Of a stretch of 64,000 nucleotides of DNA, positions 31,332-55,925 are shown piece after piece. A program made the translations under genes and the position numbers. This DNA comes from an uncultured Gammaproteobacteria bacterium (GTDB lineage: Bacteria; Patescibacteriota; Patescibacteriia; 2-01-FULL-39-33): contig CAZHYS010000003.1 of NCBI GenBank assembly GCA_964536975.1, forward strand, positions 15,419 to 79,418, read 5' to 3'. The stretch's first letter is position 1. Each line of letters begins with the position of its first letter. The notes under the pieces were generated by a model. The model had not been told where the DNA came from, ran no database searches, and saw nothing but the letters and a program-made list of their open reading frames with translations.

Positions 31332-31484
31332 TACTATTTTAATAACCTAAAGTGGGATGTCGTGTTTACTTATTAAATATGGTATAATAAAGACAATCGA
31401 GATAAATAGCATATAAATACATTAAAAGTGACAAGTTAAAATACATCATGGTAGAAAAGTAAGAATGATACTAAAACCTTTAAA

Positions 31485-32015: not shown

Positions 32016-32033
32016 TATAAATAATAACTTTTT

Positions 32034-33116
32034 ATGAAAAAATTATTTATTATCCCACTACTATTATTGGCCTTTAGCTTTAATGAGGCGAAAGCATTTG
32101 GTTCTTTTAAATTGATTGATTTTAAATTAGAAAAAACAGGAATGGTGGGGGTTCCTTTTAGTGAATATATAAATTATATTTATAGTGGTGACTATTATTC
32201 CAAAATTTCAGTCATCGGTGCAAAGATACCAAATGGTTTAACTCTCGGATCAATTAATTATGGAACAAATGGAGTGGATTCGGTTAAATTAAGTATAACA
32301 CCTAAAGAATCTGGAGTGTATCCTTTAACATTAATTTTAACTGATAATAATGGCGCTGTATTAAGCCAACCGTTTAATTTTACTGTTAGTGATAACTCTT
32401 ATAGTATAATTACAACCGCTTTGCCAAGCGCTATGACTGGAAAACAATATGATGGGGTTATTAAATTAAAATATTTTGGTTTAGATAATCCAGTAACTGT
32501 TATGTTAGATGGTGATGGATTGTCTAAATTATGTCTGTATCCTAGAACAACGGTGATTTCTACAGATTACTCGTCTGGTTTTCCAGAAGAGACCATAGAG
32601 GTGTCTTTTTCTGGTTTGCCATGTTCGGCAGGACAATATACGGTAACACTTTATGTTGGAGAGGAAAAAGCTAAAAAGTACACTCTTTATATAGAAAAAA
32701 ACCCCAGCATTGCAACGGGGGAGTCAGAAGAGTCTGCTACGGCCGGTGTAGACAGCACGGAGGTATCATTAAATGTTCGAGAAAGATTGATAAAAACAAA
32801 GGACAATCCAGCCGTATATTTATTAGAGAATGGAGCTAGGAGATTATTTGTTAATTTTGATACTTACTACAGTTGGTATGGAAATGATTTTTCTTCCGTT
32901 GAAGAAATAAGTCAAGATGAATTCGACGATTTATCTTTAGGTAAAAATGTGGTAGTAAAATCTAATAGCTATATTAAATTTGAAAACGGCAATTCGATAT
33001 ACCGTATTCAAGATGATGTAAATATTTGCAAAACTATTGAAACTCCGAATAATTTTTACTTAATACAGACAGCATTTGAAATGGATTACACTAGAACAGG
33101 AGACTGCTTAGAGTAA
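32034..33116 (+). CDS. hypothetical secreted protein (AT-rich island)
   Basis: It has a signal peptide (MKKLFIIPLLLLAFSFNEAKA) and is beta-rich. I recognise no domain. Confidence 0.5.
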   Translation: MKKLFIIPLLLLAFSFNEAKAFGSFKLIDFKLEKTGMVGVPFSEYINYIYSGDYYSKISVIGAKIPNGLTLGSINYGTNGVDSVKLSITPKESGVYPLTLILTDNNGAVLSQPFNFTVSDNSYSIITTALPSAMTGKQYDGVIKLKYFGLDNPVTVMLDGDGLSKLCLYPRTTVISTDYSSGFPEETIEVSFSGLPCSAGQYTVTLYVGEEKAKKYTLYIEKNPSIATGESEESATAGVDSTEVSLNVRERLIKTKDNPAVYLLENGARRLFVNFDTYYSWYGNDFSSVEEISQDEFDDLSLGKNVVVKSNSYIKFENGNSIYRIQDDVNICKTIETPNNFYLIQTAFEMDYTRTGDCLE

Positions 33117-41574: not shown

Positions 41575-44001
41575 ATGACCAAGAGGTTGCCACTTTTTAT
41601 CCTGCCGATTTTGATGTTGGGAGGATTTTTTGTTTGCGCGGATTTCGCTCGCGCCGCTGATTATGATATTACCGGTACGGAAGTTTGGGAGGGCGGGCAG
41701 ACCATCGTCGTTGACCAGCTTCTAAGCGTCAATGTGACCGGCAAGTTGACTATCAAGCCGGGGACACTGATCAAGATGGGTGAGGGCGCGGCGATTATTG
41801 TTCGCGGCGAATTGATTATTGAAGGCGCGGCCGACAATCCGGTGGTAATCACTTCGCTCAAAGACGATAGTATCGGCGGTGACACCAATGGCGACGGCAG
41901 TGCCACTGTGGCAGCACCCGGCGATTGGTGGACTGTCGCCATCGCCTATCCGACGTCCAAATTTTTTGCTGATTACACGGTCATTCGGTACGGCGGCGGA
42001 CTAAACGGAACCATTGACAGTGTGATCATGTCCATGTCGGCCCAAGAAGTGAAGATAGACCACAGCACTATCGTTGACAACGCCGGCACCATCAGCAATC
42101 GCGTGGATAATTTTCATCTCAATAATTCCAATGTTTACGCTTTTTACGCCGACGAAGGCGAAATGAGCGGCATCAACAACACCGGCGAAGCGGCGATTGA
42201 TTTGACAAATAATTATTGGGGACATCCGGACGGCCCGACGACCGTGGCGGATTATATAAACGGCGACATCAAGGGGACGCTTGTAATGGGCGAGGCAAAT
42301 TATGAGCCGTACAACAGCGAAAAAATAATTTATTCCCGCCGGATTGATCCGGTCATTGTCATTCCGGGAATTTTGGGAAGCTGGAAAGTGAATGGCGAGT
42401 GGCGGTTGGACCCTATCTTGGGTACCTACAACAATCTGATGGAGGCGTTTATCTCCGCCGGCTACTATGAGCCGACTTGGGCAAATTGGCTCTTGGGTCG
42501 CAAGCCGACCCTATTTGCTTTTCCGTATGACTGGCGGCAGGACAACGCTATCACCGCGGATATGCTCAAGGAAAAAATTCAGGAGGTGAAGGAGAAATCC
42601 GGCCGCGACAAAGTGGATATTGTCGCGCATTCAATGGGCGGACTGGTGGCGCGGGCGTACATACAGAGCGACGATTATCAAAACGATGTGGATCAGGTGA
42701 TTTTTCTCGGCACGCCACATTTGGGGTCGGTGGATAGTTACAATAGAAGAGAAGGTGCTTATTTTGGAAATAAACCAATAGATTTTTTATTTAAAACAGT
42801 TTTTCAATTAGAGGCCAATGCCAACGGCTATTTGAGCTTGGTTGACTATATTAGAAATGAAGTGCCGACGGTCGGCCAATTATTGCCGATCTATGATTAT
42901 CTGAAAGACAAAACCGCCGGCGTTTGGCAACTCCGAAGCTATCCGACCAATTATCCACGAAATGAATTTTTGGAAGGCCTCAACTCCGCCGACAGGTTGT
43001 CGCGTTTGACCCAGCGGACAAATGTCACCAATATCATTGGTAATATAAGTGAAGGCACCTTGCGCTATATCCGAGTCGTTCCCGACCCAAATACCAAGGA
43101 CAAACTGTGGCAATACGGCTATCCGGAAAATCTGCGGGACAATGAAAATTCTTTTGAGTCGGCAGACGGCGACGGCACTGTCTCTGCCAACAGTTCTAAT
43201 GCGATTTCCGACGCGCGCATGATTGAGCTGTCCGGCGATCATCTGGCGCTCCCCACTCTCGCCCAGCAGGATGTGATTGAAGCTTTGACTGGCCGGCGGC
43301 CGACCGCGTATCTTGATAACGCGCAAGCTTACAATGCCCGCCGTTGGACTATTTTGCGGGTGTATTCGCCGGTGGATTTCGTGGTTATTGATCCGCTTGG
43401 CCGCCGCGTGGGCAAGGATTTTGCCAATAGCACGACGACCAATGAGATTGCCGGCGCGTTTTATACCGGCTTTGACAGCGAAGTGGAATTTGTCGCCATT
43501 CCCGATCCCGTGGACGGCGAGTATCGGGTGGAGCTTCAGGGTGTTGATGGCGGTGGCGAATACAAGCTGGCAGTGAGCTTTGTTGACGAAGATAATGCGT
43601 CTCTTAACAGCGAAGCGGAAGTGAAGTCGTTTATCGCCGCCGGCGCCGTTGATAGCTTCACGGTTGATTATAGCGCGTCTTCTACCGCCGAGCCGTCTTT
43701 TGAGTCGGAAGTTGATTTTGCCAAGTTGATAGATATTACCAATGCTCTATACGAGCAAAAGGAGATAGCCAAAAAAGAAATTTACAAGATCTTGATCAAT
43801 GATTTCCGCCAGCTGGAGAAAAACTACAATCAAATGGATGGCAAGCACAAGCTCAAAGATAAAATCTTGGAAAAATATATCATCGTCCGCTTGGAAATTA
43901 TCAAGAAAAGCCTGGAGCTGTATCAGCGCCATAAATGGATTTCTACTACCGCCAAAAATGTGCTCGTTTCAAATATAAATTTGTTAATTAATAAATTTTA
44001 A
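41575..44001 (+). CDS. secreted alpha/beta-hydrolase (lipase/PGAP1/LCAT-like GxSxG: VAHSMGGLVARAY) with N-terminal beta-helix-like domain
   Basis: It has a signal peptide, an N-terminal repeat-rich domain, a Ser hydrolase motif and a C-terminal coiled coil. Confidence 0.6.
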   Translation: MTKRLPLFILPILMLGGFFVCADFARAADYDITGTEVWEGGQTIVVDQLLSVNVTGKLTIKPGTLIKMGEGAAIIVRGELIIEGAADNPVVITSLKDDSIGGDTNGDGSATVAAPGDWWTVAIAYPTSKFFADYTVIRYGGGLNGTIDSVIMSMSAQEVKIDHSTIVDNAGTISNRVDNFHLNNSNVYAFYADEGEMSGINNTGEAAIDLTNNYWGHPDGPTTVADYINGDIKGTLVMGEANYEPYNSEKIIYSRRIDPVIVIPGILGSWKVNGEWRLDPILGTYNNLMEAFISAGYYEPTWANWLLGRKPTLFAFPYDWRQDNAITADMLKEKIQEVKEKSGRDKVDIVAHSMGGLVARAYIQSDDYQNDVDQVIFLGTPHLGSVDSYNRREGAYFGNKPIDFLFKTVFQLEANANGYLSLVDYIRNEVPTVGQLLPIYDYLKDKTAGVWQLRSYPTNYPRNEFLEGLNSADRLSRLTQRTNVTNIIGNISEGTLRYIRVVPDPNTKDKLWQYGYPENLRDNENSFESADGDGTVSANSSNAISDARMIELSGDHLALPTLAQQDVIEALTGRRPTAYLDNAQAYNARRWTILRVYSPVDFVVIDPLGRRVGKDFANSTTTNEIAGAFYTGFDSEVEFVAIPDPVDGEYRVELQGVDGGGEYKLAVSFVDEDNASLNSEAEVKSFIAAGAVDSFTVDYSASSTAEPSFESEVDFAKLIDITNALYEQKEIAKKEIYKILINDFRQLEKNYNQMDGKHKLKDKILEKYIIVRLEIIKKSLELYQRHKWISTTAKNVLVSNINLLINKF

Positions 44002-44006
44002 AATTT

Positions 44007-44402
44007 ATGAAAATAAATTGGTCAAAAATTTTAATTTCATATTTTTCGGTGTTAATTTTGGTAGTTTTCTTAAGCTCAGTCGCTGCCATCGTTTTTGCGG
44101 GTAATTTGTATCAGTCTATATTCAGTCCCGTTTATAACTCTGGTTTATTAACCTTAGGAGGAGAAGGTTTGGATACCTTTTTAGGTGGCTTTTTGTTGTC
44201 ATATGCTTTATTATTGCCTTTACTATCATTCCTTATCATTTCCAGTAAAAAATGGATTTGTTGGCTTATTTTTATAATTCCATTCTTATTTTTCTTTTTA
44301 ACTGATAGCAAATGGTTTTCATGCTTCATCATCCTCACTATCCTCGGCGGCCTCATCGGCTGGCTGATTAAGTTGGTTTACACAAAGATCAAAAAACAGT
44401 AA
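44007..44402 (+). CDS. hypothetical 4-TM membrane protein
   Basis: It is hydrophobic and lies 5 nt after the preceding gene. Confidence 0.45.
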   Translation: MKINWSKILISYFSVLILVVFLSSVAAIVFAGNLYQSIFSPVYNSGLLTLGGEGLDTFLGGFLLSYALLLPLLSFLIISSKKWICWLIFIIPFLFFFLTDSKWFSCFIILTILGGLIGWLIKLVYTKIKKQ

Positions 44403-44404
44403 AA

Positions 44405-44790
44405 CCATTTTCCCTCCCCTTTATAAGGGGAGGGCAGGGAGGGGTATTATCACCCTGTCCGCCTTTATATTACGAACGAGGGAGCCTTTATAATTCTTCC
44501 CCCTCCTTACGAAGGAGGGGGTAGGGGGAGGTCAGATTAATTTATCCCCCCAATTTTTCCTCCCCTTACCAAGGGGAGGAGCCTGCCCTGAGCGAAGCCG
44601 AATGGGTATCTCCCCCCCCCTTGTTCTAAAGAAGGCATCTCTGTTCTTCCCCCTCCTTACGAAGGAGGGGGTAGGGGGAGGTCAGATTAATTTATTTCCA
44701 CCGCCCCCGCCAAAACCGATTACAATTTTGGCGACCCCTCCTTCGGACAAGGAGGGGTAATAAAAATACGAGGGGAGGGTTTTTTATGTG
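44405..44790. repeat. cluster of at least 5 CCTCC hairpin repeats incl. an exact 54-bp duplication (44504-44545 = 44644-44697)
   Basis: Member sequences are ccctcccctttataaggggaggg, ccccctccttacgaaggagggggtagggggagg (twice), cctccccttaccaaggggagg and cccctccttcggacaaggagggg. The shared motif cctgccctgagcgaagccgaatgg is also at 52150 and 57590. Confidence 0.8.
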
Positions 44791-44805
44791 TAATAGATGT
44801 GATTG

Positions 44806-44841
44806 ATCTCCGGAGATGTCTCCATAGATATCTCCGGAGAT
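44806..44841. repeat. left boundary palindrome atctccggagat-gtctccatagat-atctccggagat
   Basis: It contains two perfect 12-bp palindromes. The right-hand counterpart is at 50951-50974. Confidence 0.7.
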
Positions 44842-44910
44842 TTTTAGTTTGACTTTTGGAGCCGAAAGTGGGAAAATTATGGTATTAATTTAATTCTTGT
44901 TTCCAAAATT

Positions 44911-46944
44911 ATGGCAAAAATCTTAGAAATCATCAAAGACTCAAGTTATAATCTTTCAATTTTTGATCAGAAACTGATTGACGAGCTGGAAGGTAAAGTC
45001 ACCACAAAAGACGGCAAATCTTATGTTGTTTGCGCTATCCGAGATAAAGAAATAATTTTGAAGCCGGAGGAGGTTGTCCGCCAGCTCTATGCGATGAAAC
45101 TGCTTGAAGATTACGGCTATCCAAAACAAAGAATCAAATTTGAACACGCAATCCATTTTGGCCGTGAGGTAAAATCTGCCGACATTGTTATTTTTGACAA
45201 AGACCGCCCGACTGTTGAATACATCATTGTTGAAATTAAAAAACCAAAACTCCAAGACGGAAAAAACCAGCTCCGCTCCTACACCAACGCCACTGGTGCG
45301 CCGATTGCCGTTTGGACCAATGGTGGACAAATTTCGCATTACAACCGCAAAGACCCAAATTACTTTGAAGACATTACCGATATTCCAAAAGCCGACCAAA
45401 CGCTTGAAGATATTTTGAAAGAAAGATTTACTCTTAAAGACTTAATCATCAAAGACAAAATCCCGAACGAGGGGAAATCGCTCAAAACCATTATTCAGGA
45501 AATGGAAGATGAAGTTTTGGCAAATGCGGGCGTAGATGTCTTTGAAGAAGTTTTTAAACTTATTTTCACCAAACTGTACGATGAATTACAGAGCAAAAAA
45601 GACAAAATGCGTCTGGAAATTTATCTTGAGGATAAATTAAGCAAAGAAGATCGCGGAGATTATGACAAAGTAAAAGAAATTTTGGCAAAAATTGACGATT
45701 CCAGTTTCAGAGTTTTGGAATTTAGAAACACAGGTCAATCCGAGAGCGAACTAAAAAATAAAATTCAAAAACTTTTTGACGAAGCCAAAGCCAAATGGCC
45801 GGGCGTTTTTGACGAAGCAAGCCAAATTCAGCTTTCGCCCTCTCATCTTTCCGTCAGCGTTTCCAGTTTGCAGGATATAAAACTTTTCAATTCCAATCTG
45901 CAAATCATAGACGAAGCCTTTGAATACTTGGTCAATAAATCATCAAAAGGCGAAAAAGGCCAATACTTCACGCCTCGTCATGTGATTGATATGTGCGTCA
46001 AAATGCTCAATCCGAAAGCTGGCGAATACATGGTAGATACTGCCGCCGGTTCTTGCGGATTTACCGTTCATACGATTTTTCAAATCACCGGACATTTATT
46101 CCAAAACACCGACATTTCCGAGGAAGAAAAAGAAAATGTGCTTAAAGTATTCGGTATTGATTTTGATGAAAAAGTCGTGCGCGTTGCTCGCACTTTAAAC
46201 TTGATCGCCGGAGACGGAAATACCAACGTTTTACATCTCAACAATCTTGATTATGAACGCTGGAATGAATCAATCCAAAATCGCGACTGGCTGGAAGTGT
46301 ACGGAGCGGGATTAAAACGCCTCGAAGCTCTACAAAAAGATAAAAGTTCCTACAAAGAATTTAATTTTGATATTCTCATGGCAAATCCGCCATTTGCCGG
46401 AGACATCAAAGAATCGCGCATAATCCACAAATACGATCTTGGCTACAACGAAAAAAACAAACCAAAATCAAAAGTTGGGCGCGATATTTTGTTTATCGAA
46501 AGAAACTTAAACTTTTTGAAGCCGGGCGGAAGAATGGCGATTGTTTTACCACAAGGCCGTTTTAATAATACTTCTGACAAGGCAATTCGCGAGTATATCG
46601 CCGAAAAAGGCAGAATCCTTGCCGTAGTCGGGCTTCATGTAAACACTTTTAAACCGCACACGGGAACAAAAACCAGCGTGCTTTTTGTGCAGAAATGGGA
46701 CGACAAGCTTTGCCCGAAAGTGGAGGATTATCCGATTTTCTTTGCCGTTTCCGAAAAATCCGGCAAGGACAATTCCGGCGAGTATGTTTTCGTCAAAAAC
46801 GGCAACAATCAGCCGAAACTAGATAAAAATGGGCACTTGATAATCAATCATGACTTGCACAATCACGACGGCGAATTGCCCGACGGCGTAGCGGAAAAGT
46901 TTATTGAATGGGCGAAGTCGGAAAAATTAAGTTTTTGGAAATAA
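44911..46944 (+). CDS. restriction-modification fusion protein: N-terminal PD-(D/E)xK (HsdR_N-like) domain + gamma-class N6-adenine methyltransferase (BcgI-like Type IIB / Type I HsdM-like)
   Basis: It has the nuclease-like motif ADIVIFD...EYIIVEIKKP. The MTase motif I is VDTAAGSCGF and motif IV is NPPF (LMANPPFAG). No HsdR is nearby. Confidence 0.7.
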   Translation: MAKILEIIKDSSYNLSIFDQKLIDELEGKVTTKDGKSYVVCAIRDKEIILKPEEVVRQLYAMKLLEDYGYPKQRIKFEHAIHFGREVKSADIVIFDKDRPTVEYIIVEIKKPKLQDGKNQLRSYTNATGAPIAVWTNGGQISHYNRKDPNYFEDITDIPKADQTLEDILKERFTLKDLIIKDKIPNEGKSLKTIIQEMEDEVLANAGVDVFEEVFKLIFTKLYDELQSKKDKMRLEIYLEDKLSKEDRGDYDKVKEILAKIDDSSFRVLEFRNTGQSESELKNKIQKLFDEAKAKWPGVFDEASQIQLSPSHLSVSVSSLQDIKLFNSNLQIIDEAFEYLVNKSSKGEKGQYFTPRHVIDMCVKMLNPKAGEYMVDTAAGSCGFTVHTIFQITGHLFQNTDISEEEKENVLKVFGIDFDEKVVRVARTLNLIAGDGNTNVLHLNNLDYERWNESIQNRDWLEVYGAGLKRLEALQKDKSSYKEFNFDILMANPPFAGDIKESRIIHKYDLGYNEKNKPKSKVGRDILFIERNLNFLKPGGRMAIVLPQGRFNNTSDKAIREYIAEKGRILAVVGLHVNTFKPHTGTKTSVLFVQKWDDKLCPKVEDYPIFFAVSEKSGKDNSGEYVFVKNGNNQPKLDKNGHLIINHDLHNHDGELPDGVAEKFIEWAKSEKLSFWK

Positions 46945-46970
46945 ATTATAATTTTAAATTACACAATCTT

Positions 46971-48053
46971 ATGAAGAAAAAAAATATTGAAGAATTAAAT
47001 AATGAATTTTTTGAAAAAGAAGATTCTGACGATGAATCTTTAAAACTTAAAGGGCCAATTATTAGTTATGGGGCGGACTACACTCTCGATTCAATTCGAC
47101 AGTACGTAAATGAGAGTAAGCAAATTATTGTACAGCCAAGCTTCCAAAGAAAATTTGTTTGGGATATAAAAAAGGCCAGCAAATTAATAGAATCTTTCAT
47201 TCTTGGTTATCCCGTGCCGAACATTTTGCTTGGGAGAGATCCTGATACTGAGGTCATGGAAGTAATAGATGGCCAGCAGAGAATTTTATCTATATGCGAC
47301 TTCTTTAAGGGCAGATTTAGAGACGAAAAAGTTTTTAAGTTAGCTGGCGATATTGACCAAAAATTTTTAAACAAAACCTTTGACGACCTAGATGAAGCTA
47401 TTCAAAAGAAATTAAGAAACGCGGTTTTGAAGGCTGTGGTCTTTGTCTATCCAAAAGATGACCCAAATATAAAATTTACAGCATTTCAACGTATTAACAC
47501 GGGGAGCGTTGTTTTAAACCAGCAAGAAATCAGAAACTGCATTTATGGGGGATCGTTAAATGATTTACTATTTAAAATAAATGAATACAACGAAGAATGG
47601 AGAGAACTCCTTGCTAAAAAACCGGATAAAAGAATGAAGGATGTAGAAACAATCTTGAGATTTTTTGCCGCTTACTTTAAAGGAAAAGATTATGAAAAGC
47701 CAATCACTAAATTTCTTAACGAATTTATGAATAAGAATAAAAATCTTTCTGAAGAAAAAGGAGCCGAATGGCAAGAATTATTTAACCAAACACTATCTAT
47801 CATTGTAAAAAATATTGGTAGCTCATTTCCCCGCACATCAAAATCAAAAACATTTAATAGAGCAGTTTTTGAATCTGTTATGACCGCCATAGCAGAACTG
47901 AAGAAAGAAAATAGGCTAAAAGTCAAATATTTAAAACGAAACTATACCAAACTAGTAGAAGATCCTAATTATCTTGATTCGGTAACTTCACAAACTTCCG
48001 ACAAGAAAAACTATAAAAACAGGATTGAAATAGCAATTAAAATGCTCTCGTGA
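46971..48053 (+). CDS. DUF262 (ParB/Srx-like NTPase/nuclease superfamily) domain protein
   Basis: The DGQQR motif (VIDGQQRILSI) is present. The ORF track starts at 46908, overlapping the RM gene stop. I use the ATG at 46971. Confidence 0.65.
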   Translation: MKKKNIEELNNEFFEKEDSDDESLKLKGPIISYGADYTLDSIRQYVNESKQIIVQPSFQRKFVWDIKKASKLIESFILGYPVPNILLGRDPDTEVMEVIDGQQRILSICDFFKGRFRDEKVFKLAGDIDQKFLNKTFDDLDEAIQKKLRNAVLKAVVFVYPKDDPNIKFTAFQRINTGSVVLNQQEIRNCIYGGSLNDLLFKINEYNEEWRELLAKKPDKRMKDVETILRFFAAYFKGKDYEKPITKFLNEFMNKNKNLSEEKGAEWQELFNQTLSIIVKNIGSSFPRTSKSKTFNRAVFESVMTAIAELKKENRLKVKYLKRNYTKLVEDPNYLDSVTSQTSDKKNYKNRIEIAIKMLS

Positions 48054-48063
48054 TTTTATATGT

Positions 48064-48624
48064 ATGAACGTTATTTTGGAAAGAAAAAAATATGTTGTTC
48101 GATTACTCGAGAATATAGAGAATTATCCTTCTACCAATCAATTCAAGCAAGAAATGATGACCTTTTCGTATGTTATAGTTTGTGGCGCTATTGAATTTAT
48201 GACAGAAACCATAATACAAGATTGGTTGAGTAAAACAATCAAACATCATAAAAGCTCATCCTACTATCGGGGGAGAAAATATGTTCAATATTTTTTAGAC
48301 ATTCAATCTCAAGCGCGAGAAAAAAATATTGACGATTTTCATAGTACAAACTTAGATAGCATTAGAAATCTTATTAAAGAGATGGCGGGAGAAACAGCGC
48401 GGAATAAATTTAATAACTTGTTTCAAAGTGCTCAAAACACTTTGGCATTGCAGCCGGATTTAAACGAGAGACTTAAACGAATTACCGATACTCGTCATTA
48501 TTTAGCCCACGGACAAAAAGTCCCAAATGATATACAACCCAATGTCCGGGAATTAAGAGAAGATTTTCTTTTTATATACAAGCATATTATAAATAATATC
48601 AAAAAATGTTTACCAAAAGTATAA
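48064..48624 (+). CDS. hypothetical protein, putative HEPN-like (Rx4H motif RHYLAH near C-terminus)
   Basis: It is alpha-helical with a C-terminal R-x4-H motif. It sits between the MTase and S subunit, like the abortive-infection and PrrC-like passengers of Type I loci. Confidence 0.35.
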   Translation: MNVILERKKYVVRLLENIENYPSTNQFKQEMMTFSYVIVCGAIEFMTETIIQDWLSKTIKHHKSSSYYRGRKYVQYFLDIQSQAREKNIDDFHSTNLDSIRNLIKEMAGETARNKFNNLFQSAQNTLALQPDLNERLKRITDTRHYLAHGQKVPNDIQPNVRELREDFLFIYKHIINNIKKCLPKV

Positions 48625-48631
48625 AATAACT

Positions 48632-50050
48632 ATGCAATATTCAGTTGTAAAATTCAAAGGAGTTTTAGTCGATAATGACATATTCAGATTCGATGCTGAT
48701 TATTTTTATCCAAAATCATACAACCTTTATAAAACGATAATAAATAAAAATTTTGCAAGAGTGAAAGAAAGTTTTAATGTTACAAAATTAGCTGGTTTTG
48801 AATACACCAAATATTTTACTGATCCAAATATCAATTCAGACGATTTCTATATTGTTTTAACCAGTAAGAATATTCAAAACGAAGAATTGGTCTTAAATGA
48901 ATATCTTAAAATTGACAAAAAAGTTGCTGACGAATTTTTGAAGCGTTCTAACCTTAAAAAAGGAGATGTTGTTTTGTCATATACTGGGGAATATAGAAGA
49001 GCATTAGTTCTAGAAGAGAACGATTTTCAACTTGGACCAAATATCTGCCTCATTCGTAGCAAAAATAAAAATATCGATTCTTATTATTTATCTACTTTTT
49101 TAAATTCTAACGCTGGTCAGCTTTTACTTGATCGTGAAAAAACACTTTCTGCACAACCTACTGTCGCGATGTCAAGAATAAGAGAAATACCAATTCCGGT
49201 GTTAGATATAGATTTTCAAAATCGAATTGGTGAAATTATTACATCATCAAAAACAAAAAGAAAATCTGCAAACAATCTCTATTTCCAAGCCGAACAATTA
49301 CTCCTTTCCGACTTGGGGCTTTTGGACTGGAAGCCAAAGCACGAACTGGCTTTTGTCAAAAACTTTTCCGCAACACAAGAATCCGAGCGTTTTGACGCAG
49401 AGTATTTTCAACCAAAATACGAGGAAATCGTTGATGCAGTGAAAAAATACAAAGGTGGATTTGATGAATTGGGCAATTTGGTAAAAATCAAAGACAAGAA
49501 TTTTACGCCCAAAGACAACGAGCAATACAAATACATTGAGCTTGCCAACATTTCATCAAACGGCGAAATAAATGGCTACATTGAAAATTTTGGCAATGAA
49601 CTGCCGTCAAGAGCGCGTCGTAAAGTACAAAAAGGCGATCTGATTGTTTCGTCCATTGAAGGATCACTTGAAAGTATTGCTTTAATAACGGAAGACTGGA
49701 AAAACGCTTTATGCTCCACCGGATTTTTTGCTGTCAATTCAGATAAAATTAATTCCGAAACCTTGCTTATTATATTAAAAACAAAAATCGGGCAATTGCA
49801 ACTAAAGAAAGGTTGCAAAGGAACAATTTTAACCGCTATCGGCAAAGAGGAATTGTCCAAAATAGTTTTGCCAAAAATTGATTCAAAAACGCAACAAGAA
49901 ATCAAAAAGAAAATAACTGAGATGTACGAAACGAAAAAATTATCTAAATCATTACTTGAAATTGCCAAGCGAGGCGTGGAAATGGGAATAGAAAAAGACG
50001 AGCAAGAAGCAGAAAAATGGATCAATAAAGAGGTTAAAAAAATTAATTAA
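48632..50050 (+). CDS. hsdS: restriction-modification specificity (S) subunit with two TRDs
   Basis: It has the HsdS/BcgIB-like duplicated target-recognition architecture and conserved spacer helices. Confidence 0.75.
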   Translation: MQYSVVKFKGVLVDNDIFRFDADYFYPKSYNLYKTIINKNFARVKESFNVTKLAGFEYTKYFTDPNINSDDFYIVLTSKNIQNEELVLNEYLKIDKKVADEFLKRSNLKKGDVVLSYTGEYRRALVLEENDFQLGPNICLIRSKNKNIDSYYLSTFLNSNAGQLLLDREKTLSAQPTVAMSRIREIPIPVLDIDFQNRIGEIITSSKTKRKSANNLYFQAEQLLLSDLGLLDWKPKHELAFVKNFSATQESERFDAEYFQPKYEEIVDAVKKYKGGFDELGNLVKIKDKNFTPKDNEQYKYIELANISSNGEINGYIENFGNELPSRARRKVQKGDLIVSSIEGSLESIALITEDWKNALCSTGFFAVNSDKINSETLLIILKTKIGQLQLKKGCKGTILTAIGKEELSKIVLPKIDSKTQQEIKKKITEMYETKKLSKSLLEIAKRGVEMGIEKDEQEAEKWINKEVKKIN

Positions 50051-50053
50051 CAT

Positions 50054-50950
50054 ATGTCCACCTACTACAACCCAAACAGAGACGCCTCTTGGAACTATGG
50101 CGGAAATAATTGGAAATTAAGCCGGTCAAAGATTGATTTGTTTTTGGAATGTCCAAGATGTTTTTATTTGGATAATAAACTCGGCACAAAGCGAGTGCCC
50201 GGATTCCCTTTTTCTATAAATAGCGCGGTGGATTATCTTTTAAAGCAGGAGTTTGATTCCTATCGTGTTAAAAACGAACAACATCCACTTCAAAAAGAAT
50301 ATGGTATAGATGCTCGGCCAATGTCGCACGCCGAGCTGGATGAATGGCGGCGGAATTTTGGCGGCGTCAGATATCTGCACGAACCGACCGGACTGTTGGT
50401 GACCGGCGCGATTGATGATTTGTGGGTGACTATCCCTCCCACCTCCCCTAGCCCCTCCTCGGGCAGGAGGGGAAAGTTAGAATATTCGGCAAACCCCTCT
50501 GTGTCTCCCCTTGGAAAGGGGAGAAAGTCAGAAGATTTGGCAAACCTCTCCGCGTCTCTCCTTGGAAAGGGGGGAAAGTTTGAGCCGGAATGTATTGTGG
50601 TTGATTATAAAGCTACAGCCAAAGATGAGGCCGTAAAGGAATTAGATAAAGAGTGGCAAGATGGCTACAAACGGCAAATGGAGGTGTACCAGTGGCTACT
50701 GCGGAAAAATGGTTTGAAAGTCTCTGATGTTGGTTATTTTGTTTATTGCACCGGCAAAATGGATCGCCAGGCTTTTGACAAGAAGATTGAATTTGATGTT
50801 AATTTAATTGAACATAGAGGTGATGATTCTTGGGTAGAGAAAACTCTTTTTGACATCAAGAAGTGTCTGGACGGCGACGTCATCCCGAAGTCTGGCAAAA
50901 GTTGTGATTGGTGCGCTTATTTCGCGGCCAGAAAAAAATCAGAAAAATAA
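50054..50950 (+). CDS. Cas4-like / RecB-family PD-(D/E)xK nuclease with 4-Cys cluster, carrying an in-frame insertion of CCTCC hairpin repeats
   Basis: The N-terminal CPRCFY and C-terminal CDWCAY form a CxxC pair. The core reads IVVDYK and the QxxxY-like motif is MEVYQWLL. The inserted repeats lie at 50440-50590 inside the frame. Confidence 0.55.
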   Translation: MSTYYNPNRDASWNYGGNNWKLSRSKIDLFLECPRCFYLDNKLGTKRVPGFPFSINSAVDYLLKQEFDSYRVKNEQHPLQKEYGIDARPMSHAELDEWRRNFGGVRYLHEPTGLLVTGAIDDLWVTIPPTSPSPSSGRRGKLEYSANPSVSPLGKGRKSEDLANLSASLLGKGGKFEPECIVVDYKATAKDEAVKELDKEWQDGYKRQMEVYQWLLRKNGLKVSDVGYFVYCTGKMDRQAFDKKIEFDVNLIEHRGDDSWVEKTLFDIKKCLDGDVIPKSGKSCDWCAYFAARKKSEK

Positions 50951-50974
50951 ATCTCCGGAGACATCTCCGGAGAT
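50951..50974. repeat. right boundary palindrome atctccggagac-atctccggagat
   Basis: It matches the left boundary at 44806-44841. Confidence 0.7.
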
Positions 50975-51058
50975 CGCCAGTTGATTTTTGGTGAATAATG
51001 TGAAAAGATTATAATTGGTAAGAATACAATTAATATATTGGTCGGTGATATTTTAATT

Positions 51059-51559
51059 ATGCATGACAAAGAAAAAAATTACGCTTTTATTGATAGCCAA
51101 AATCTGAACCTGGGAATTCAGAGCTTGGGGTGGAAGTTGGATTACAAAAGATTTAGGATTTATTTGCGGGAGAAGTATGGCGTTGAAGTTGCCTATTTGT
51201 TTATTGGCTATATACCAGGAAATCAGGATTTATATTCATCGCTTCAATCTTGCGGGTATGTTTTGGTTTTCAAGCCGACCATTCCCGATCAGAATGGAAA
51301 TATAAAAGGAAATGTTGATGCCGACTTGGTTTTGCAGGCGTTATTGGATTATGAAAAATATGACAAGGCAGTTATCATCACAAGCGATGGAGATTTTTAT
51401 TCTTTGGTTAAATACTTATATCGGCAGGGCAAATTAAAATTTGTCATGAGCCCATATATCAAAACTTGTTCCATATTGCTCAAGAAAACAGCACAAGAAA
51501 GAATTATTTTTATGGATAATCTAGAGAAAAAACTTAGTTATAATAAAAAACACCGCTAA
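51059..51559 (+). CDS. NYN/LabA-like PIN-fold domain protein (putative RNase)
   Basis: It has YAFIDSQNL, DADLV and ITSDGDF motifs typical of NYN domains. Confidence 0.6.
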   Translation: MHDKEKNYAFIDSQNLNLGIQSLGWKLDYKRFRIYLREKYGVEVAYLFIGYIPGNQDLYSSLQSCGYVLVFKPTIPDQNGNIKGNVDADLVLQALLDYEKYDKAVIITSDGDFYSLVKYLYRQGKLKFVMSPYIKTCSILLKKTAQERIIFMDNLEKKLSYNKKHR

Positions 51560-51670
51560 GGGATGAGGCCCGTAGAGGTATTTTTTATGTGTATTCTGAT
51601 TGTATTATAAAGCGTTTTATAAACTTTGTCAATAGCGGTAAATATTATTAAAATTAAACAATCAAATTCC

Positions 51671-51889
51671 ATGCGAAAATTGGAAAAACAAAACATCCGC
51701 AAGCTCGGCAAGACCGGCCGCGGCGCCAGCATCACCATCACCCTGCCGATTGAAATCATTCGTGATTTAAAATGGCGCGACGGCCAAAATGTTGTGGTCA
51801 CTCGGCGCGGTCAAGGAATCGCGATCAGCGACTGGCCGGCCTCCGCTAAAGCTTCGGCGAGCCGAGGGAAACCGCAAAATAAAAAATAA
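51671..51889 (+). CDS. small AbrB/MazE/SpoVT-like DNA-binding protein
   Basis: The sequence GKTGRGASITITLPIEIIRDLKWRDGQNVVV resembles the swapped-hairpin barrel. Confidence 0.4.
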   Translation: MRKLEKQNIRKLGKTGRGASITITLPIEIIRDLKWRDGQNVVVTRRGQGIAISDWPASAKASASRGKPQNKK

Positions 51890-51962
51890 TATTTTGTAAA
51901 TATAAGAAGTTATTGCATGCCCTTATTCGCGCGAATAGGAGAATAAGAAATATTTATATTTA

Positions 51963-52322
51963 GACCTCCCCTACCTCCTTCTCGTATTTTTATTACCCCT
52001 CATTGTTTGAAGGAGGGGTCGTCAAAATTGTAATCAGTTTGATTTTTCCTCCCCCTTGTTTGAAGGGGGAGGACAGGAGGGGGTGAAAAAATATTAATTA
52101 GACCTCCCCTTACCCCCTCCTTCAGACAAGGAGGGGGAAAAGATGCCAGCTCGGCTTCGCTCAGGGCAGGCTCCCTCCTCCATCCGCCAAAGGCGGACAA
52201 ATGGACAAGGAGGGGGAATAAATCCTGTATCTTTCCCTACCCCCCCCTCACCCCTAATTTTTAGCCCCTAACCCCTAATCGTTAAACGCTAACAGCTAAT
52301 CGCTAATTGCTAATCCCTGTCC
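51963..52322. repeat. cluster of CCTCC hairpin repeats + ctaatcgctaattgcta word repeats (left flank of helicase gene)
   Basis: There are at least 4 hairpin copies, and ccctaacccctaatcgttaaacgctaacagctaatcgctaattgctaatcc runs up to the ATG. Confidence 0.75.
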
Positions 52323-52324
52323 AA

Positions 52325-53992
52325 ATGACCCAAAACGAAGCGTTGGAAATTTTGAAGCTCGGCCACAATGTTTATCTCACCGGTTCGGCCGGCAGTGGCA
52401 AGACATATTTGCTCAACAAGTATGTCGGTTTTTTGAAATCCGCCGGCGCGTCAATCGGCATCACCGCTTCCACCGGCATTGCCGCCAGCCACATCGGCGG
52501 CGTCACCATTCATTCCTGGGCCGGCATCGGCATCAAGGATCGGTTGTCAAAAGGCGATCTCTCCGACTTGCGGCGCAACAACCGAGTGCATCATCGGCTG
52601 GCCAAGGCTGCGGTTCTTATTATTGACGAAATATCAATGCTGGATGCCAAGCGGCTGGATTTGGCGGATATAGTTTGCCGCCGGCTGCGTGAAGACGACC
52701 GGCCGTTCGGCGGCTTGCAAGTGGTGTTGTGCGGCGATTTTTTCCAGCTCCCGCCGGTGAACCGCGGCCCGGGAAAAACCGATTTCGCCCCCGCCTCGGC
52801 GGCTTGGCAAGAATTGGATTTGAAAGTCTGCTATCTGACCGAACAGCATCGCCAGACCGATGACGGCTTTTTGAAAGTTCTAAACGACATCCGCTCCGGC
52901 CTCGCCAATGACGAGACCAAAAAGATTTTAGCCAGCCGGCAGGATCGCGAACCGGCTGGCGATGTTTTTGCCACCAAGCTTTATTCGCACAATTTCAATG
53001 TTGACGCGGTTAATGATTTTCATCTGGCGCAAATAGACGAAGAATCAAGAGTGTATCCGATGTCCGGCTACGGCTCTCATCGGCTGATCGCCGATTTGAA
53101 AAAGAGCTGTCTGGCCAAGGAAGACTTGGAGCTCAAAGAGGGCGCCGCCGTGATGTTTGTCAAAAATAATTTTGAAGAGGGCTACACCAACGGCACGCTC
53201 GGAACGGTGGTCGGCTTTGACGAAGGGAGCGGTTATCCGGTAGTGCGGATAAAATCCGGCCGGAAAATAATCGCCTCGCCGGTTTCTTGGGCGTATGAAT
53301 TGGACGGCGAGGTGATAGCGGTCATCCGCCAGGTTCCCCTGCGATTGGCTTGGGCGATTACCATTCATAAGAGCCAAGGCATGAGCTTGGACGCGGCGGA
53401 AATTGATTTGAGCCGATCATTTGAACGGGGGATGGGCTATGTCGCCCTCTCGCGCGTGCGGTCGCTCTCCGGCATCAAGCTGCTCGGCCTCAATGATTTG
53501 GCGATCAGGGTAAACGAAGAAATACTTCGGCTGGATCAGGATTTGATGGCGCAATCGGAAACGCTCGCGGCCCAGATGCGTGCGGCTGATGGGGCGGAAA
53601 TCGGGGCGAGGCAGGCCGCTTTTTTGCGCGCCATTTCCTCGGCCGATGGGGAGAACAAAGGGGAGAGCAAAAAGGCTTCGCCCAAAAAAGCCAAAGGCGA
53701 AACATACCAAGAGACGAAAAAATTGGTGTTGCAAAAAATGTCCCTTGCCGATATGGCCGCCGCTCGCGGCCTGGTTGAGGGGACGATCATCAGCCATTTG
53801 GAAAAATTGTCGGCCGGCGACAAGCAGCTGGACTTAGATTATTTGCGGCCGGACAGTGATCGATTGGAAACGATCGGGGCGGCGTTTAAAAGGACTGGCG
53901 ACATCGCCCTGGCGCCGGTCCGCGATCTGCTTGGCGAGGATTTTTCTTTTGAGGAATTGCGTTTGGCCAGATTGGTTTTGCGCTTGCTTTAG
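52325..53992 (+). CDS. PIF1/RecD-family (AAA_30) ATP-dependent DNA helicase
   Basis: It has the Walker A motif GSAGSGKT, motif II LIIDEISM, and a C-terminal Pif1 2B/HTH-like region. Confidence 0.75.
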   Translation: MTQNEALEILKLGHNVYLTGSAGSGKTYLLNKYVGFLKSAGASIGITASTGIAASHIGGVTIHSWAGIGIKDRLSKGDLSDLRRNNRVHHRLAKAAVLIIDEISMLDAKRLDLADIVCRRLREDDRPFGGLQVVLCGDFFQLPPVNRGPGKTDFAPASAAWQELDLKVCYLTEQHRQTDDGFLKVLNDIRSGLANDETKKILASRQDREPAGDVFATKLYSHNFNVDAVNDFHLAQIDEESRVYPMSGYGSHRLIADLKKSCLAKEDLELKEGAAVMFVKNNFEEGYTNGTLGTVVGFDEGSGYPVVRIKSGRKIIASPVSWAYELDGEVIAVIRQVPLRLAWAITIHKSQGMSLDAAEIDLSRSFERGMGYVALSRVRSLSGIKLLGLNDLAIRVNEEILRLDQDLMAQSETLAAQMRAADGAEIGARQAAFLRAISSADGENKGESKKASPKKAKGETYQETKKLVLQKMSLADMAAARGLVEGTIISHLEKLSAGDKQLDLDYLRPDSDRLETIGAAFKRTGDIALAPVRDLLGEDFSFEELRLARLVLRLL

Positions 53993-54234: not shown

Positions 54235-55164
54235 ATGCTACTCAAAATCAAAGAAGCGCTGTTCCGTCCGCTGGGCGGATTCGTGCCCGCGCCAATCAAG
54301 AATTTTTTCGCCCGGATCAGCCGGTCATTGTGGAAATTGGCGGTGGTCATAATTATCTTGGCTTCCGTTATTATTGTTTATAATGAGGCAATCTATCGGC
54401 TGGCGGATGACGACAGCGACTATTCGGATGAGGCGGTGAGCGAAGAAGAAACCGAAGCTGACGATTGCAATGTCATGGCTATAGAGCTTCATGGGTCGTT
54501 GCTTGACTATATTCCGCCGGAAAGCTTTGATACCGAGGGAAATCTTTTGTTTGATGAGACGGCTTCGGAAAATATTCTTGCCGCTATCAATTCCGCGCGT
54601 GACGACGAGAATATCAAAGCGGTTTTATTGGAAGTTGATTCTTACGGCGGTTCGCCTGTCGCCGGCGAAGAGGTGGCCAACGCTTTGAAAGGGTTGGACA
54701 AGCCGACTGTCGCCATGATTCGCAGTGGCGGGGCCTCGGGCGCCTATTGGGCGGCAACCGGCGCCGACAAGATATTCGCCTCGGCCAATTCCGATGTCGG
54801 CAGTATCGGCGTGACCATGTCTTATGTCAGCGAGGCCGACGAGGAGCTGGACGGAGGCTTGGTTTACAATCAATTGAGCGCCGGCAAATTCAAGGACTCC
54901 GGCGACCCGAACAAGTCGCTCTCCGCCGAGGAGAAAAAAATATTCATGCGGGATGTTAATATTATTCATGAAAATTTCATCGCCGCTGTCGTTGCCAATC
55001 GGAATCTGGATGCCGCCAAGGTGCGGGCGCTGGCCGACGGCTCCACCATGCTCGGGCAGATGGCGCTGGAGAATGGCTTGATTGACGCCATCGGCAGTTA
55101 TGACGAGGCAAAGGAGCATCTCAAAGAAATCATCGGCGAGGAAGCGATTCTCTGCTGGTATTAA
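54235..55164 (+). CDS. sppA: signal peptide peptidase SppA (S49 family, 36K type)
   Basis: It has an N-terminal TM helix and the motif LLEVDSYGGSP...SGGASGAYW...GSIGV. Confidence 0.8.
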   Translation: MLLKIKEALFRPLGGFVPAPIKNFFARISRSLWKLAVVIIILASVIIVYNEAIYRLADDDSDYSDEAVSEEETEADDCNVMAIELHGSLLDYIPPESFDTEGNLLFDETASENILAAINSARDDENIKAVLLEVDSYGGSPVAGEEVANALKGLDKPTVAMIRSGGASGAYWAATGADKIFASANSDVGSIGVTMSYVSEADEELDGGLVYNQLSAGKFKDSGDPNKSLSAEEKKIFMRDVNIIHENFIAAVVANRNLDAAKVRALADGSTMLGQMALENGLIDAIGSYDEAKEHLKEIIGEEAILCWY

Positions 55165-55181
55165 AATAATTTTTAAAAGCA

Positions 55182-55925
55182 ATGCCCATCCTGCTGACTA
55201 AAATAAAAAATCAGATAATTTGTGAATTTTTGCCGCCGGCCAAATCGTCAAATCAGGTGGTGATTTTTTGTTTTGGCATGCCTAGTTATCCTGGCCGGCG
55301 CAGCGAGCTAATGGAATTTTTTTCCAAACGAGGCTATTGGGTTTTTATTCCCCGCTATCGTGGCAGTTGGGAAAGCACGGGTAAATTTTTGGCCAAGTCG
55401 CCGCATCTTGATGTCATAGACATTATCAATCAATTGCCGAAAGGATTTAAAGATTTGTGGAGTGGCGAGAAAAAGAAAATTTTTTCGCCCCAAGTTTTTC
55501 TGATCGGCTCCAGTTTTGGCGGTCCGGCCGCGCTTTTGGCTTCGGCCGACAAGCGAGTCAAAAAAGTAGTTGCCCTAGCGCCGGTGGTGGATTGGCTGAC
55601 GGAAGGTCCGGCTGAACCGCTTGACCATTTAGCTCGGTTTGTTAAAAATGCCTTTACTGGCGCGTATCGTTCGGACGACGATATCTGGAAAAAATTGCGA
55701 GGTGGCAAATTTTATAGTCCGTCATTTTCAGCATCAAAACTCGTCGCCGATAAAATCATGATTTTTCACGCTCGGGATGATGAAGTGGTACCGTTTGGAC
55801 CGACCGCTGAACTGGCGCGAAAAATCGGCGCCAAGTTCGTCCCGCTTGAATCAGGCGGACACGGCTTAGCCAGGCGCATAATGGAGCCGTTTTTTTGGCG
55901 GAAGATCAATAAATTTTTAAAATAA
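55182..55925 (+). CDS. alpha/beta hydrolase (dienelactone hydrolase/prolyl oligopeptidase-like)
   Basis: It has GxSxG (LIGSSFGGPAA) and an Asp/His tail. Confidence 0.65.
   Translation: MPILLTKIKNQIICEFLPPAKSSNQVVIFCFGMPSYPGRRSELMEFFSKRGYWVFIPRYRGSWESTGKFLAKSPHLDVIDIINQLPKGFKDLWSGEKKKIFSPQVFLIGSSFGGPAALLASADKRVKKVVALAPVVDWLTEGPAEPLDHLARFVKNAFTGAYRSDDDIWKKLRGGKFYSPSFSASKLVADKIMIFHARDDEVVPFGPTAELARKIGAKFVPLESGGHGLARRIMEPFFWRKINKFLK

Follow-up and report, generated by a model that had tools for sequence, protein, structure and literature searches.

Chromosomal defence hotspots, in which conserved flanks enclose variable content, are known from E. coli, Acinetobacter and others (e.g. PMC10121019, PMC11723918), type II restriction-modification (R-M) systems are subject to C-protein/C-box control (e.g. 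PMC8053105), and defence genes have been found embedded in type I R-M loci (bioRxiv 10.1101/2024.01.29.577857). The subject here is a defence cassette of about 6.1 kb, with predicted restriction and abortive-infection genes, together with the tandem 12-bp arrays at its two ends, in a 64 kb stretch of contig CAZHYS010000003.1 (GenBank assembly GCA_964536975.1; the whole stretch is called the window below). The window belongs to a Paceibacteria-like genome of the candidate phyla radiation (CPR, or Patescibacteria), and the cassette occupies a strain-variable defence hotspot upstream of a conserved gene for an AbrB-like protein. CPR bacteria have tiny genomes with few recognisable regulators, and to our knowledge almost nothing is known on how they acquire or control phage defence. 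On balance we favour the reading that this is a defence hotspot with an acquired composite cassette, and that the palindromes are operators of an AbrB-type regulator, situated at the cassette promoter and at the regulator's ancestral promoter. Taken singly, a defence hotspot, control like that of a C-box and embedded defence genes all have precedents; the CPR setting, the predicted AbrB-fold regulator with branch-specific 12-bp arrays and the shared promoter platform are new.

The locus resembles the known hotspots in its near-identical flanks, in the unrelated R-M and type IV systems found at one position, in the foreign composition of the cassette and in the insertion sequence (IS) element of one allele. 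It differs from them in belonging to an ultra-small CPR genome, in that no integrase or tRNA anchor was found, and in being bounded by a conserved promoter and regulator-linked arrays. With the C-protein systems it would share tandem palindromic operators, both before the regulator's own gene and beside an R-M promoter, and a predicted delay or limitation in the expression of toxic enzymes. In contrast to those systems, the candidate regulator has a predicted AbrB/MazE fold and not a helix-turn-helix (HTH), it is resident while the R-M cassettes change, the sites have a 12-bp period and the control is predicted. No HTH (Xre-type) C-protein gene was found in the cassette by Pfam, and the candidate regulator, the AbrB-like protein, is encoded outside the cassette. 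Gene domains were scanned with Pfam, PADLOC and NCBIfam, and folds were assessed with AF2 and Foldseek. Loci from other genomes and contigs are given L numbers, proteins P numbers.

Cassette replacement and foreign origin

Paceibacterota from digesters share the right flank of the window, with a nucleotide identity of 73-78% over the genes for the S49 peptidase and Hydrolase_4 (54235-55925) and of 76-86% over the AbrB region. The position directly upstream of the AbrB-like gene is in these relatives taken by other cassettes (Table 1), and five different cassette sets are found there when the window's own is counted. A reading of the window made from its sequence only had proposed a mobile or recombinationally exchanged defence cassette. 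The comparison with relatives agrees with the exchange, since the cassette is replaced by four other unrelated R-M or type IV sets at the same position, and the block is clearly neither syntenic nor universal among them.

Flanks that are 99.8% (3.5 kb) and 97.5% (2.9 kb) identical enclose unrelated inserts of 6.2-6.3 kb in L106 and L109, and the right-hand homology of this pair begins at the array (L106 9957 / L109 9840). Between L100 and L103 the right flank is 98.4% identical and starts 17-26 nucleotides (nt) before the ATG of the AbrB-like gene. On the left side, the variable DNA begins after a conserved promoter and not at the array. The route of replacement would most likely be homologous recombination in the conserved flanks.

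The cassette is horizontally acquired and foreign in composition. Its GC content is 36.8%, and that of the gene for an NYN-domain protein behind it 34.5%; the flanks have 48-50% and the AbrB-like gene has 53%. The cassette stretch also displays the largest tetranucleotide distance among the 6-kb windows of the 64 kb, and the block singled out by the sequence-only reading is thereby the most deviant 6 kb of the window. The methyltransferase encoded by the first cassette gene has relatives at 86-96% identity in more than 120 distinct 90%-identity clusters; these proteins (P0011-P0130) carry the labels Uhr-, Falkow-, Harrison-, Magasanik- and Peregrinibacteria, and one is encoded on a 3.28-Mb contig. 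The Pif1 helicase encoded downstream has, among GTDB species representatives, matches in Patescibacteria only, at no more than 53% identity. This difference indicates that one type IIB-like RM gene has spread horizontally, widely and very recently, across several CPR groups.

A synteny test in GTDB genomes based on the Pif1 helicase (best identity 53%) found synteny mostly lost and was useful only for linking the AbrB-like gene to an array in locus L006. When the proteins of the flanking genes and P0001 were looked up by exact match, nothing or only short Logan contigs came back, and no recombinase was found among the genes from 31.5 to 57 kb.

A second patch of low GC content (32-34%) lies at 31001-33116. 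Its open reading frames (ORFs; 31485-32015 and 32034-33116) have no Pfam match, and it may be another foreign insertion.

Tandem 12-bp arrays and the AbrB-like protein family

The sequence ATCTCCGGAGAT occurs, with at most one mismatch, four times in the window, every time at 44806-44841 or 50951-50974. The number expected is 0.15 and none of 100 shuffles reached four; the 10-mer core of the palindrome has no further copy in the cassette or in the remainder of the window. That two unique palindromic sites bracket the block, as the sequence-only reading had it, is confirmed by the pattern count, the shuffles and direct reading, and ORFs, Pfam and PADLOC agree with its five co-directional defence genes between the sites, followed by the NYN and AbrB-like genes. 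What it described as a tandem palindrome is at the left site really three 12-bp units, and at the right site two. Left and right arrays have a 19-nt exact stretch in common, in direct orientation, and the right array adjoins the stop codon of the final cassette gene with no base in between. A strain variant at 97% identity (L116) has its right array arranged in the same way.

The right array is the counterpart of an array that stands directly before the AbrB-like gene in relatives. Close homologues of the AbrB-like protein (P0001-P0010) represent seven other lineages (L006/L090, L099-102, L103-104, L105-108, L109-111, L112 and L113), and in all seven, two to three tandem 12-bp units of the ATCTCC type start 0 to ~120 nt upstream of the AbrB-like gene. 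Three of these lineages (L006, L112 and L113) have the array with no defence genes nearby. In L006, a metagenome-assembled genome of Buchananbacteria, an AbrB-like gene with 75% identity is found beside the Pif1 helicase and away from any R-M genes, and the array ATCTCCAGAGAT ATCTCCGGAGAT ATCTCTGGAcct lies between a TATAAT box and the ATG. A scan of 1.46 Mb for tandem units found them in front of AbrB-like genes and where cassettes begin on the left, and otherwise only in the window with its own Logan contigs and in loci that the pattern itself had fetched. In about 1.15 Mb from the 79 remaining CPR helicase loci there were none.

The foreign and exchangeable nature of the cassette is upheld by GC content, tetranucleotides, methyltransferase identity and cassette replacement, whereas the palindromes as a signature of mobility are not supported in the form proposed. 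They occur elsewhere, unassociated with islands: arrays stand before AbrB-like genes that have no cassette (L006, L112, L113) and in terminator-like positions (L086, L088), their sequence differs by branch, and the left limit of the variable DNA lies past the promoter and not at the array.

L006, L112, L113 and L105 have the array downstream of a -10-like box and upstream of the ATG, which is the position of an autorepressor's operator. Within the close clade, proteins with ITIT or FTIT pair with CCGGAG units, and those with VYLT or IYLT with CCATAC units. More distant members of the family (37-44% identity) have other tandem 12-bp palindromic units directly before the ATG, of the GCTACGTAGCAT type in L030 and two L050 paralogues and of the ATGAACGTTCAT type in L007, in housekeeping contexts. 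A branch-specific array sequence, together with a position between -10 box and ATG, is the classical signature of an autoregulatory operator, and we infer that the AbrB-like protein binds the arrays.

The folding of the window arrays raises the question of whether the palindromes act at the RNA level only, as intrinsic and partly bidirectional terminators or as hairpins like repetitive extragenic palindromes (REP), and bracket the block merely as one operon. The left array folds at -27.6 kcal/mol (z -5.45) into a 17-bp hairpin (17 pairs plus TTTAGTTT) which is followed by TTTTAGTTT and scores as a terminator on the plus strand. The right array (-24 kcal/mol, z -4.8), at the stop codon, is terminator-like on the minus strand only; the lack of a U-tract on the coding strand does not fit with such a role. 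Perfect copies in L088 and L086 are flanked by runs of A7-8 and T5-7, like bidirectional terminators, and lie between convergent genes and after a tRNA, respectively; relatives have a hairpin terminator of its own kind at this place, where it separates the left array from the promoter. However, the arrays of the digester lineages (ATCTCCATACAT twice) are direct, non-palindromic repeats which fold at 0 kcal/mol and yet keep their position, so that the conserved property is a 12-bp periodic DNA motif and not an RNA hairpin. The exact 12-mer is moreover kept between genomes whose neighbouring proteins are 43-53% identical while being absent from the 79 other CPR loci, and the arrays of L006, L112 and L113 are not at the 3' end of a gene. 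An RNA-level role alone is in our opinion improbable. Under the operator reading, the palindromic left array of the window would in addition be a terminator hairpin that insulates the promoter from upstream read-through.

A further reading, in which the encoded R-M enzyme has the palindromes as its targets or as methylation-sensitive sites and methylation feeds back on cassette expression, is highly improbable. Their regulatory positions at both ends of an R-M operon agree with this circumstantially, but the units also accompany AbrB-like genes where the genome has other R-M systems or no such system, and the 10-mer core is confined to the two arrays. A specificity (S) subunit with two target-recognition domains (TRDs), of type I or IIB, predicts a bipartite asymmetric site and not a 12-bp palindrome.

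The AbrB-like family comprises 360 representatives of 50%-identity clusters, most of them 55-65 aa long. The PF04014 model matched 10 of 10 family members (best 7.4e-6), the window protein with 19 bits (E 0.0014) against a gathering score of 24.7; a PDB sequence search with the family profile gave no meaningful match. The protein resembles AbrB, MazE and VapB as a small protein of a putative swapped-hairpin type, which is predicted to bind repeated sites cooperatively at its own promoter. It differs from the MazE and VapB antitoxins in that no cognate toxin gene follows the AbrB-like gene and in the PF04014 score of the window protein, which is below gathering. The locus supplies a candidate regulator-operator pair, a predicted AbrB-fold family of 57-72 aa with branch-specific 12-bp arrays.

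In the digester relatives the AbrB-like gene is followed by a gene for an extremely acidic protein of 63 aa (MEEDLEDYQDHIDEFGDDQPDEDV...), at L099 1931-2122, L103 10190-10381, L105 5259-5450 and L109 10213-10404. It calls to mind AbbA, an acidic protein that acts as anti-repressor to AbrB in B. subtilis (bioRxiv 10.1101/2024.08.12.607668). The window does not have this gene, and there hairpin repeats and the Pif1 helicase follow the AbrB-like gene.

A shared promoter and the proposed control of the cassette

Between the left array and the first cassette gene lies a promoter module with the consensus TTGACT-N17-GAnAAT-TAkGGTAwTAA, of which the window contains one copy. The module is found once per locus in L103/104, L105-108 and L109/110, directly upstream of the first cassette gene, which in these relatives encodes a type III Mod, an Mrr and an EcoRI-like methyltransferase, and the sequences diverge right after ...GGTAwTAA. 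It is thus common to four unrelated cassettes, that of the window included, and was found in none of 80 other CPR loci. A promoter shared by unrelated cassettes suggests that the host, and not the incoming element, controls R-M expression. The hotspot as a whole holds at least five alternative cassette sets.

The right array would be the ancestral, promoter-proximal operator of the AbrB-like regulator. The left array is followed after 7 nt by the conserved promoter, of the sigma-70 type, from which any resident cassette would be transcribed. The host's regulator would in this manner control a foreign cassette, functionally like a C-protein/C-box circuit. Cassettes would enter, or take the place of earlier ones, downstream of the platform promoter and upstream of the regulator gene, and the arrays would come to bracket them.

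In the window, the NYN gene is located between the right array and the AbrB-like gene. In L099-102 two pieces separate the array from the full AbrB gene, a truncated 5' fragment of AbrB and an internally deleted NYN remnant that is homologous to the NYN module of the window. Because this decayed remnant lies between array and AbrB gene, the NYN gene is itself a variable insertion, acquired separately, between the putative operator and the regulator gene. A look-up of the NYN gene found only the same arrangement in the 97% variant and no presence/absence polymorphism.

Several observations weigh against the operator reading. Among relatives the promoter lies anywhere from 7 to ~60 nt from the left array, and L109 has only a single unit at that place, which does not fit a precise activator geometry. 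The AbrB-like gene of the window has a promoter-like site of its own, TTGTCA-17-TAAAAT (51626-51654, plus strand), with no array, the array being ~700 nt upstream, before the NYN gene; autoregulation may have been lost here. Perfect arrays are found away from promoters, between convergent genes in L088 (2762-2785) and after the tRNA in L086 (1228-1251). The link between regulator and operator is correlative and partly confounded by phylogeny. The AF2 monomer model of the AbrB-like protein is of low confidence (pLDDT 62), and its top PDB matches in Foldseek, namely AbrB, SpoVT, MazE, VapB and Sso7c4, are weak (E 0.13-1, TM 0.34-0.44). The assignment of the cassette core to type IIB, given below, derives solely from domain architecture.

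A perfect sigma-70 consensus, TTGACA-17-TATAAT (12/12), is present on the minus strand at 51604-51632 and points towards the NYN gene, whose 3' end it would read in antisense. The above plus-strand site at 51626-51654 overlaps with it, and a related segment is found in L099/L100.

Possible recombination at the arrays

The arrays might instead be recombination sites, at which cassettes with an array and a promoter integrate into the resident array, in a Campbell-type or an integron- or pdif-like manner and by host recombinases or RecA. The array would thereby be duplicated at each junction, and the AbrB-like protein would be an accessory factor or the mere neighbour of an attachment site. Arrays are indeed present at both ends of the window cassette and of the type III cassette of L103. 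Left and right arrays share 19-nt exact direct matches within each of these genomes, as compared with 6-8 nt across genomes, and in L109 a further array-hairpin-array stands exactly where two gene blocks meet. These observations also count against the operator reading, as duplication of arrays by recombination would yield both the 19-nt matches and the internal array of L109. The right-hand homology between strains with different cassettes (L106/L109) starts at the array, and each cassette comes with a promoter module of its own, which differs between the two (~31/36 positions identical) despite their 99.8% identical left flank. The methyltransferase is near-identical across CPR groups, and one array adjoins a xerD-like gene (L093). 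In L088, from the same Buchananbacteria genome as L006, the array directly follows homologues of the hydrolase and membrane-protein pair that precedes the left array of the window, and this locus looks like an array-only ('empty') site.

On the other hand, no recombinase is encoded in or beside the island, and arrays precede AbrB-like genes in cassette-free housekeeping contexts, with sequences that differ by branch of the protein family. In L103 and L106 the left array is a pair of inverted units and the right array a direct repeat, so that the two are not simple duplicates. There is no array between the Mrr gene and the DpnII system in L105-108. The array units are unlike dif sites, which have an 11-6-11 layout, and double-crossover homologous recombination in long, near-identical flanks suffices without a special site. 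Recombination at the arrays we regard as unlikely; were capture to be mediated by the arrays as well, cassettes would be exchanged by a new mechanism.

Doubtful, too, is a scheme in which the AbrB-type protein, the 12-bp arrays and the promoter form a dedicated 'plug-in' platform, where cassettes that carry one array and the promoter would be captured at the resident array, the array duplicated and the cassette placed under the regulator. If true, it would represent an integron-like acquisition-and-expression site without an integron integrase, and would explain the presence of one RM gene at 86-96% identity across CPR groups. The likeness to integrons (intI-attI-Pc, attC) and to Acinetobacter pdif modules consists of a fixed promoter, interchangeable and mostly promoter-less cassettes, short and imperfectly palindromic repeats at junctions and a conserved end gene. 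The differences are the lack of an adjacent tyrosine recombinase, tandem 12-bp units that are not attC- or dif-like, arrays at the conserved gene even without cassettes, and a conserved end gene that is predicted to encode a DNA-binding protein of 57-72 aa. No intI was present among the genes from 31.5 to 57 kb, and the repeats do not correspond to attC-type sites, being of 12-bp units, with none between Mrr and DpnII and one internal in L109.

Gene content of the cassette

Table 1. Coordinates of the features in the window, and cassettes and arrays at the corresponding loci of other lineages
Feature	Position	Strand	Description
Left hairpin cluster	44403..44805	.	CCTCC/GGAGG modules, REP-like
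Left array	44806..44841	.	Three tandem 12-bp units ATCTCCGGAGAT GTCTCCATAGAT ATCTCCGGAGAT; middle unit degenerate
Cassette promoter module	44849..44888	+	TTGACT-N17-GAAAAT-TATGGTATTAA; 7 nt after left array
RM fusion protein	44911..46944	+	HSDR_N_2 PD-(D/E)XK nuclease + gamma-type N6-adenine methyltransferase
DUF262/GmrSD_N (ParB-like NTPase), PD-T4-2_A/NsnA-like	46971..48053	+	Pfam PF03235 7e-29
HEPN RiboL-PSP protein, 186 aa	48064..48624	+	Pfam PF18735 7e-8
Specificity (S) subunit, two target-recognition domains	48632..50050	+	PADLOC Specificity_I 1.5e-33, two stretches
Cas4-like PD-(D/E)XK nuclease with CxxC...CxxC cysteines	50054..50950	+	Pfam PDDEXK_1 3e-11, Cas_Cas4 0.002
Right array	50951..50974	.	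Two tandem 12-bp units ATCTCCGGAGAC ATCTCCGGAGAT
NYN-domain (PIN-like) protein	51059..51559	+	Pfam PF01936 2e-14; GC 34.5%
AbrB/MazE-like protein (predicted SpoVT-AbrB superfamily), 72 aa	51671..51889	+	Pfam PF04014; conserved anchor gene
Right hairpin cluster	51947..52290	.	CCTCC/GGAGG modules; partly inverted copy of left cluster
Cassette L100	directly upstream of AbrB-like gene		DpnII-type II system
Cassette L103/104	directly upstream of AbrB-like gene		Type III system
Cassette L105-108	directly upstream of AbrB-like gene		IS + Mrr + DpnII system
Cassette L109/110	directly upstream of AbrB-like gene		EcoRI-like methyltransferase, NYN, GmrSD-HNH and others
Array L099-102	upstream of AbrB-like gene		ATCTCCACACAC ATCTCCATAGAT ATCTCTATACAT
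Array L103/104	upstream of AbrB-like gene		ATCTCTATACAT ATCTATATACAT
Array L105-108	upstream of AbrB-like gene		ATCTCCATACAT twice
Array L109-111	upstream of AbrB-like gene		GTCTCTATAGAT ATCTCCATACAT
Array L112	upstream of AbrB-like gene		ATCTCCATACAT ATCTCCGGAGAT GTCTCTATACAT
Array L113	abuts AbrB-like ATG		ATCTCCGGAGTT TACTCTGGAGTA AACTCCGGAGAT

The PADLOC scan of the cassette yielded MTase_I, Specificity_I and PD-T4-2_A/NsnA matches, in keeping with the defence genes named in the sequence-only reading. In the RM fusion protein, PF13588 (8e-27) covers residues 52-159 and PF02384 (3e-34) residues 332-611, and the nuclease motif D91...E107-I-K109 is intact. The protein matched the PADLOC model MTase_I PDLC03034 at 1e-288, and its best PDB match was RM.BsaXI (8.5e-17), in which only the methyltransferase domain was aligned. 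Among type I R-M components the cassette has an HsdM-type methyltransferase and a two-TRD HsdS, and no HsdR (SF2 helicase/translocase and nuclease) was detected in it by Pfam or PADLOC. The sole helicase nearby is the Pif1-type one, which is housekeeping-like, lies outside the island and is conserved in 80 CPR genomes. Of the features of type IIB systems of the BcgI/BsaXI kind, which cut on both sides of a bipartite recognition site, two are present, a single RM polypeptide and a separate HsdS-like subunit without HsdR.

BsaXI is a type IIB enzyme with an (RM)2S architecture (PMC11997821). In common with BcgI and BsaXI, the window system has an N-terminal PD-(D/E)XK domain and a gamma N6-adenine methyltransferase in one chain, a separate two-TRD HsdS-like subunit and no HsdR. 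It differs in that its M and S genes are separated by two embedded genes, and in that PADLOC files the fusion as a type I methyltransferase and NCBIfam has MADS MAD2/MAD5 nearest, below cut-off. By its architecture, the core of the cassette looks like a BcgI/BsaXI-like type IIB R-M system, which would explain the missing HsdR.

M-S pairs without HsdR were also found in a Klebsiella plasmid locus, to which the window M is 53% and the S 26% identical, and in 14 viral contigs; the viral methyltransferase homologues (46-73%) are in M-S pairs with no genes embedded. The third gene of the Klebsiella locus was considered as a homologue of the Cas4-like gene and found not to be homologous. Membership in MADS was likewise rejected: NCBIfam scores were 297 bits for MAD2 (cut-off 720) and 110 bits for MAD5 (cut-off 400), and the PADLOC scan of the eight proteins in 44911-53992 gave mad2 and mad5 only, both weaker than the R-M models.

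Between M and S are the DUF262 and HEPN genes. The former could begin at 46908, and gene callers pick 46971. Its product has the DGQQR motif and matched NsnA (3.4e-67) and PD-T4-2_A (4.3e-60; 27-380 of 381 aa) in PADLOC. The HEPN protein matched PF18735 with 33 bits (cut-off 28.4), has the R-x5-H motif RITDTRH and matched no PADLOC model at 1e-3; it is predicted to be the RNase effector partner of the DUF262 protein. PD-T4-2 is, in the account that PMC10952713 gives of Vassallo et al. 2022, defined by a pair of DUF262 and PF18735 HEPN proteins. The pair in the window, a DGQQR DUF262 followed by an Rx5H HEPN, looks PD-T4-2-like by sequence, and its place within the M-S unit recalls PrrC and further embedded systems. 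It departs from PD-T4-2 in that the HEPN protein is without a PADLOC match and the DUF262 protein is slightly better matched to Menshen NsnA, and the pair is here a predicted one. Menshen itself, defined by NsnA followed by an NsnB ABC-ATPase and an NsnC effector (PMC12065111), was ruled out, as there is no NsnB ATPase gene and the next gene encodes the 186-aa HEPN protein.

The last gene of the cassette encodes the Cas4-like nuclease, which scored 24 bits, below the cut-off, against TIGR00372. Its ORF contains an in-frame tandem repeat at 50441-50614 with a 51-nt period (~2.4 copies from 50462), which encodes PPTSPSPSSGRRGKLEYSANPSVSPLGKGRKSEDLANLSASLLGKGGKFE and is made of the same CCTCC/GGAGG hairpin modules as the intergenic repeats of the window. 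A REP-like element has apparently been inserted in the coding sequence with the frame unbroken. The protein is identical in independent Logan contigs.

CCTCC/GGAGG hairpin repeats

The cluster before the left array has the highest hairpin density in the window (five hairpins at 44412-44760) and contains an exact 52-nt duplicate (44494-44545 and 44644-44695). A second cluster, at 51960-52260, was not stressed in the sequence-only reading. Arms of 60 nt in the two clusters (44713-44772 and 51981-52040) are inverted and 92% identical, and flank a 7.2-kb segment with the cassette, the NYN gene and the AbrB-like gene. The modules recur at about 7730, 23516, 30764, 41161, 54080, 57600 and 62600. Because they are found in so many other intergenic regions of the window, the modules are a dispersed, genome-wide, REP-like family. 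The left cluster is thus the densest one, as had been claimed, but not a border mark specific to the island, and for the same reason the clusters were ruled out as transposon-like terminal inverted repeats. Rfam gave no match above the gathering score over 43900-52500.

Logan contig L001 covers 44669-52022 of the window. It starts in the 52-nt duplicate at 44644-44695 and ends in the right arm of the inverted repeat; an inversion of the 7.2-kb segment across the 60-nt inverted repeats is conceivable.

Further occurrences of the array unit and related repeats

The viral collection was found to contain no array, and its lone AbrB 'hit' (L117) was a spurious 19-aa match in a high-GC contig. L093 has a perfect double palindrome (2126-2149) in the space between two divergent genes, annotated by motifs as rpsO and a gene for a xerC/D-like tyrosine recombinase, and a NYN/LabA-like gene comes next after rpsO. 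A 1.4-kb metagenome contig, L085, has nine ATCTCCGGAGAT-like units with irregular spacing over ~650 nt (210-865), in an apparently non-coding region of higher GC content, and this cluster resembles an iteron or centromere-like one.

In L109, a direct repeat of ~320 nt (170-290 / 3650-3760; 98%) holds a single ATCTCCGGAGAT unit and flanks the radical-SAM gene and the gene for a 150-aa protein, the two genes that border the hotspot on its left in the digester relatives.

Eight matches to the tandem palindrome in soil metagenome sequence of high GC content (L084, L087, L089, L091, L094, L096, L097 and L098; 66-69% GC) were set aside as dispersed long inverted repeats of an unrelated organism, and an apparent inversion between L084 and L094 was merely the reverse complement of one locus. 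The soil repeats have arms of at least 54 nt round a centre of 80-90 nt, the inner ends are an identical 24-mer, ATCTCCGGAGATATCTCCGGAGAC, and in appearance they are like REP or miniature inverted-repeat transposable elements (MITE).

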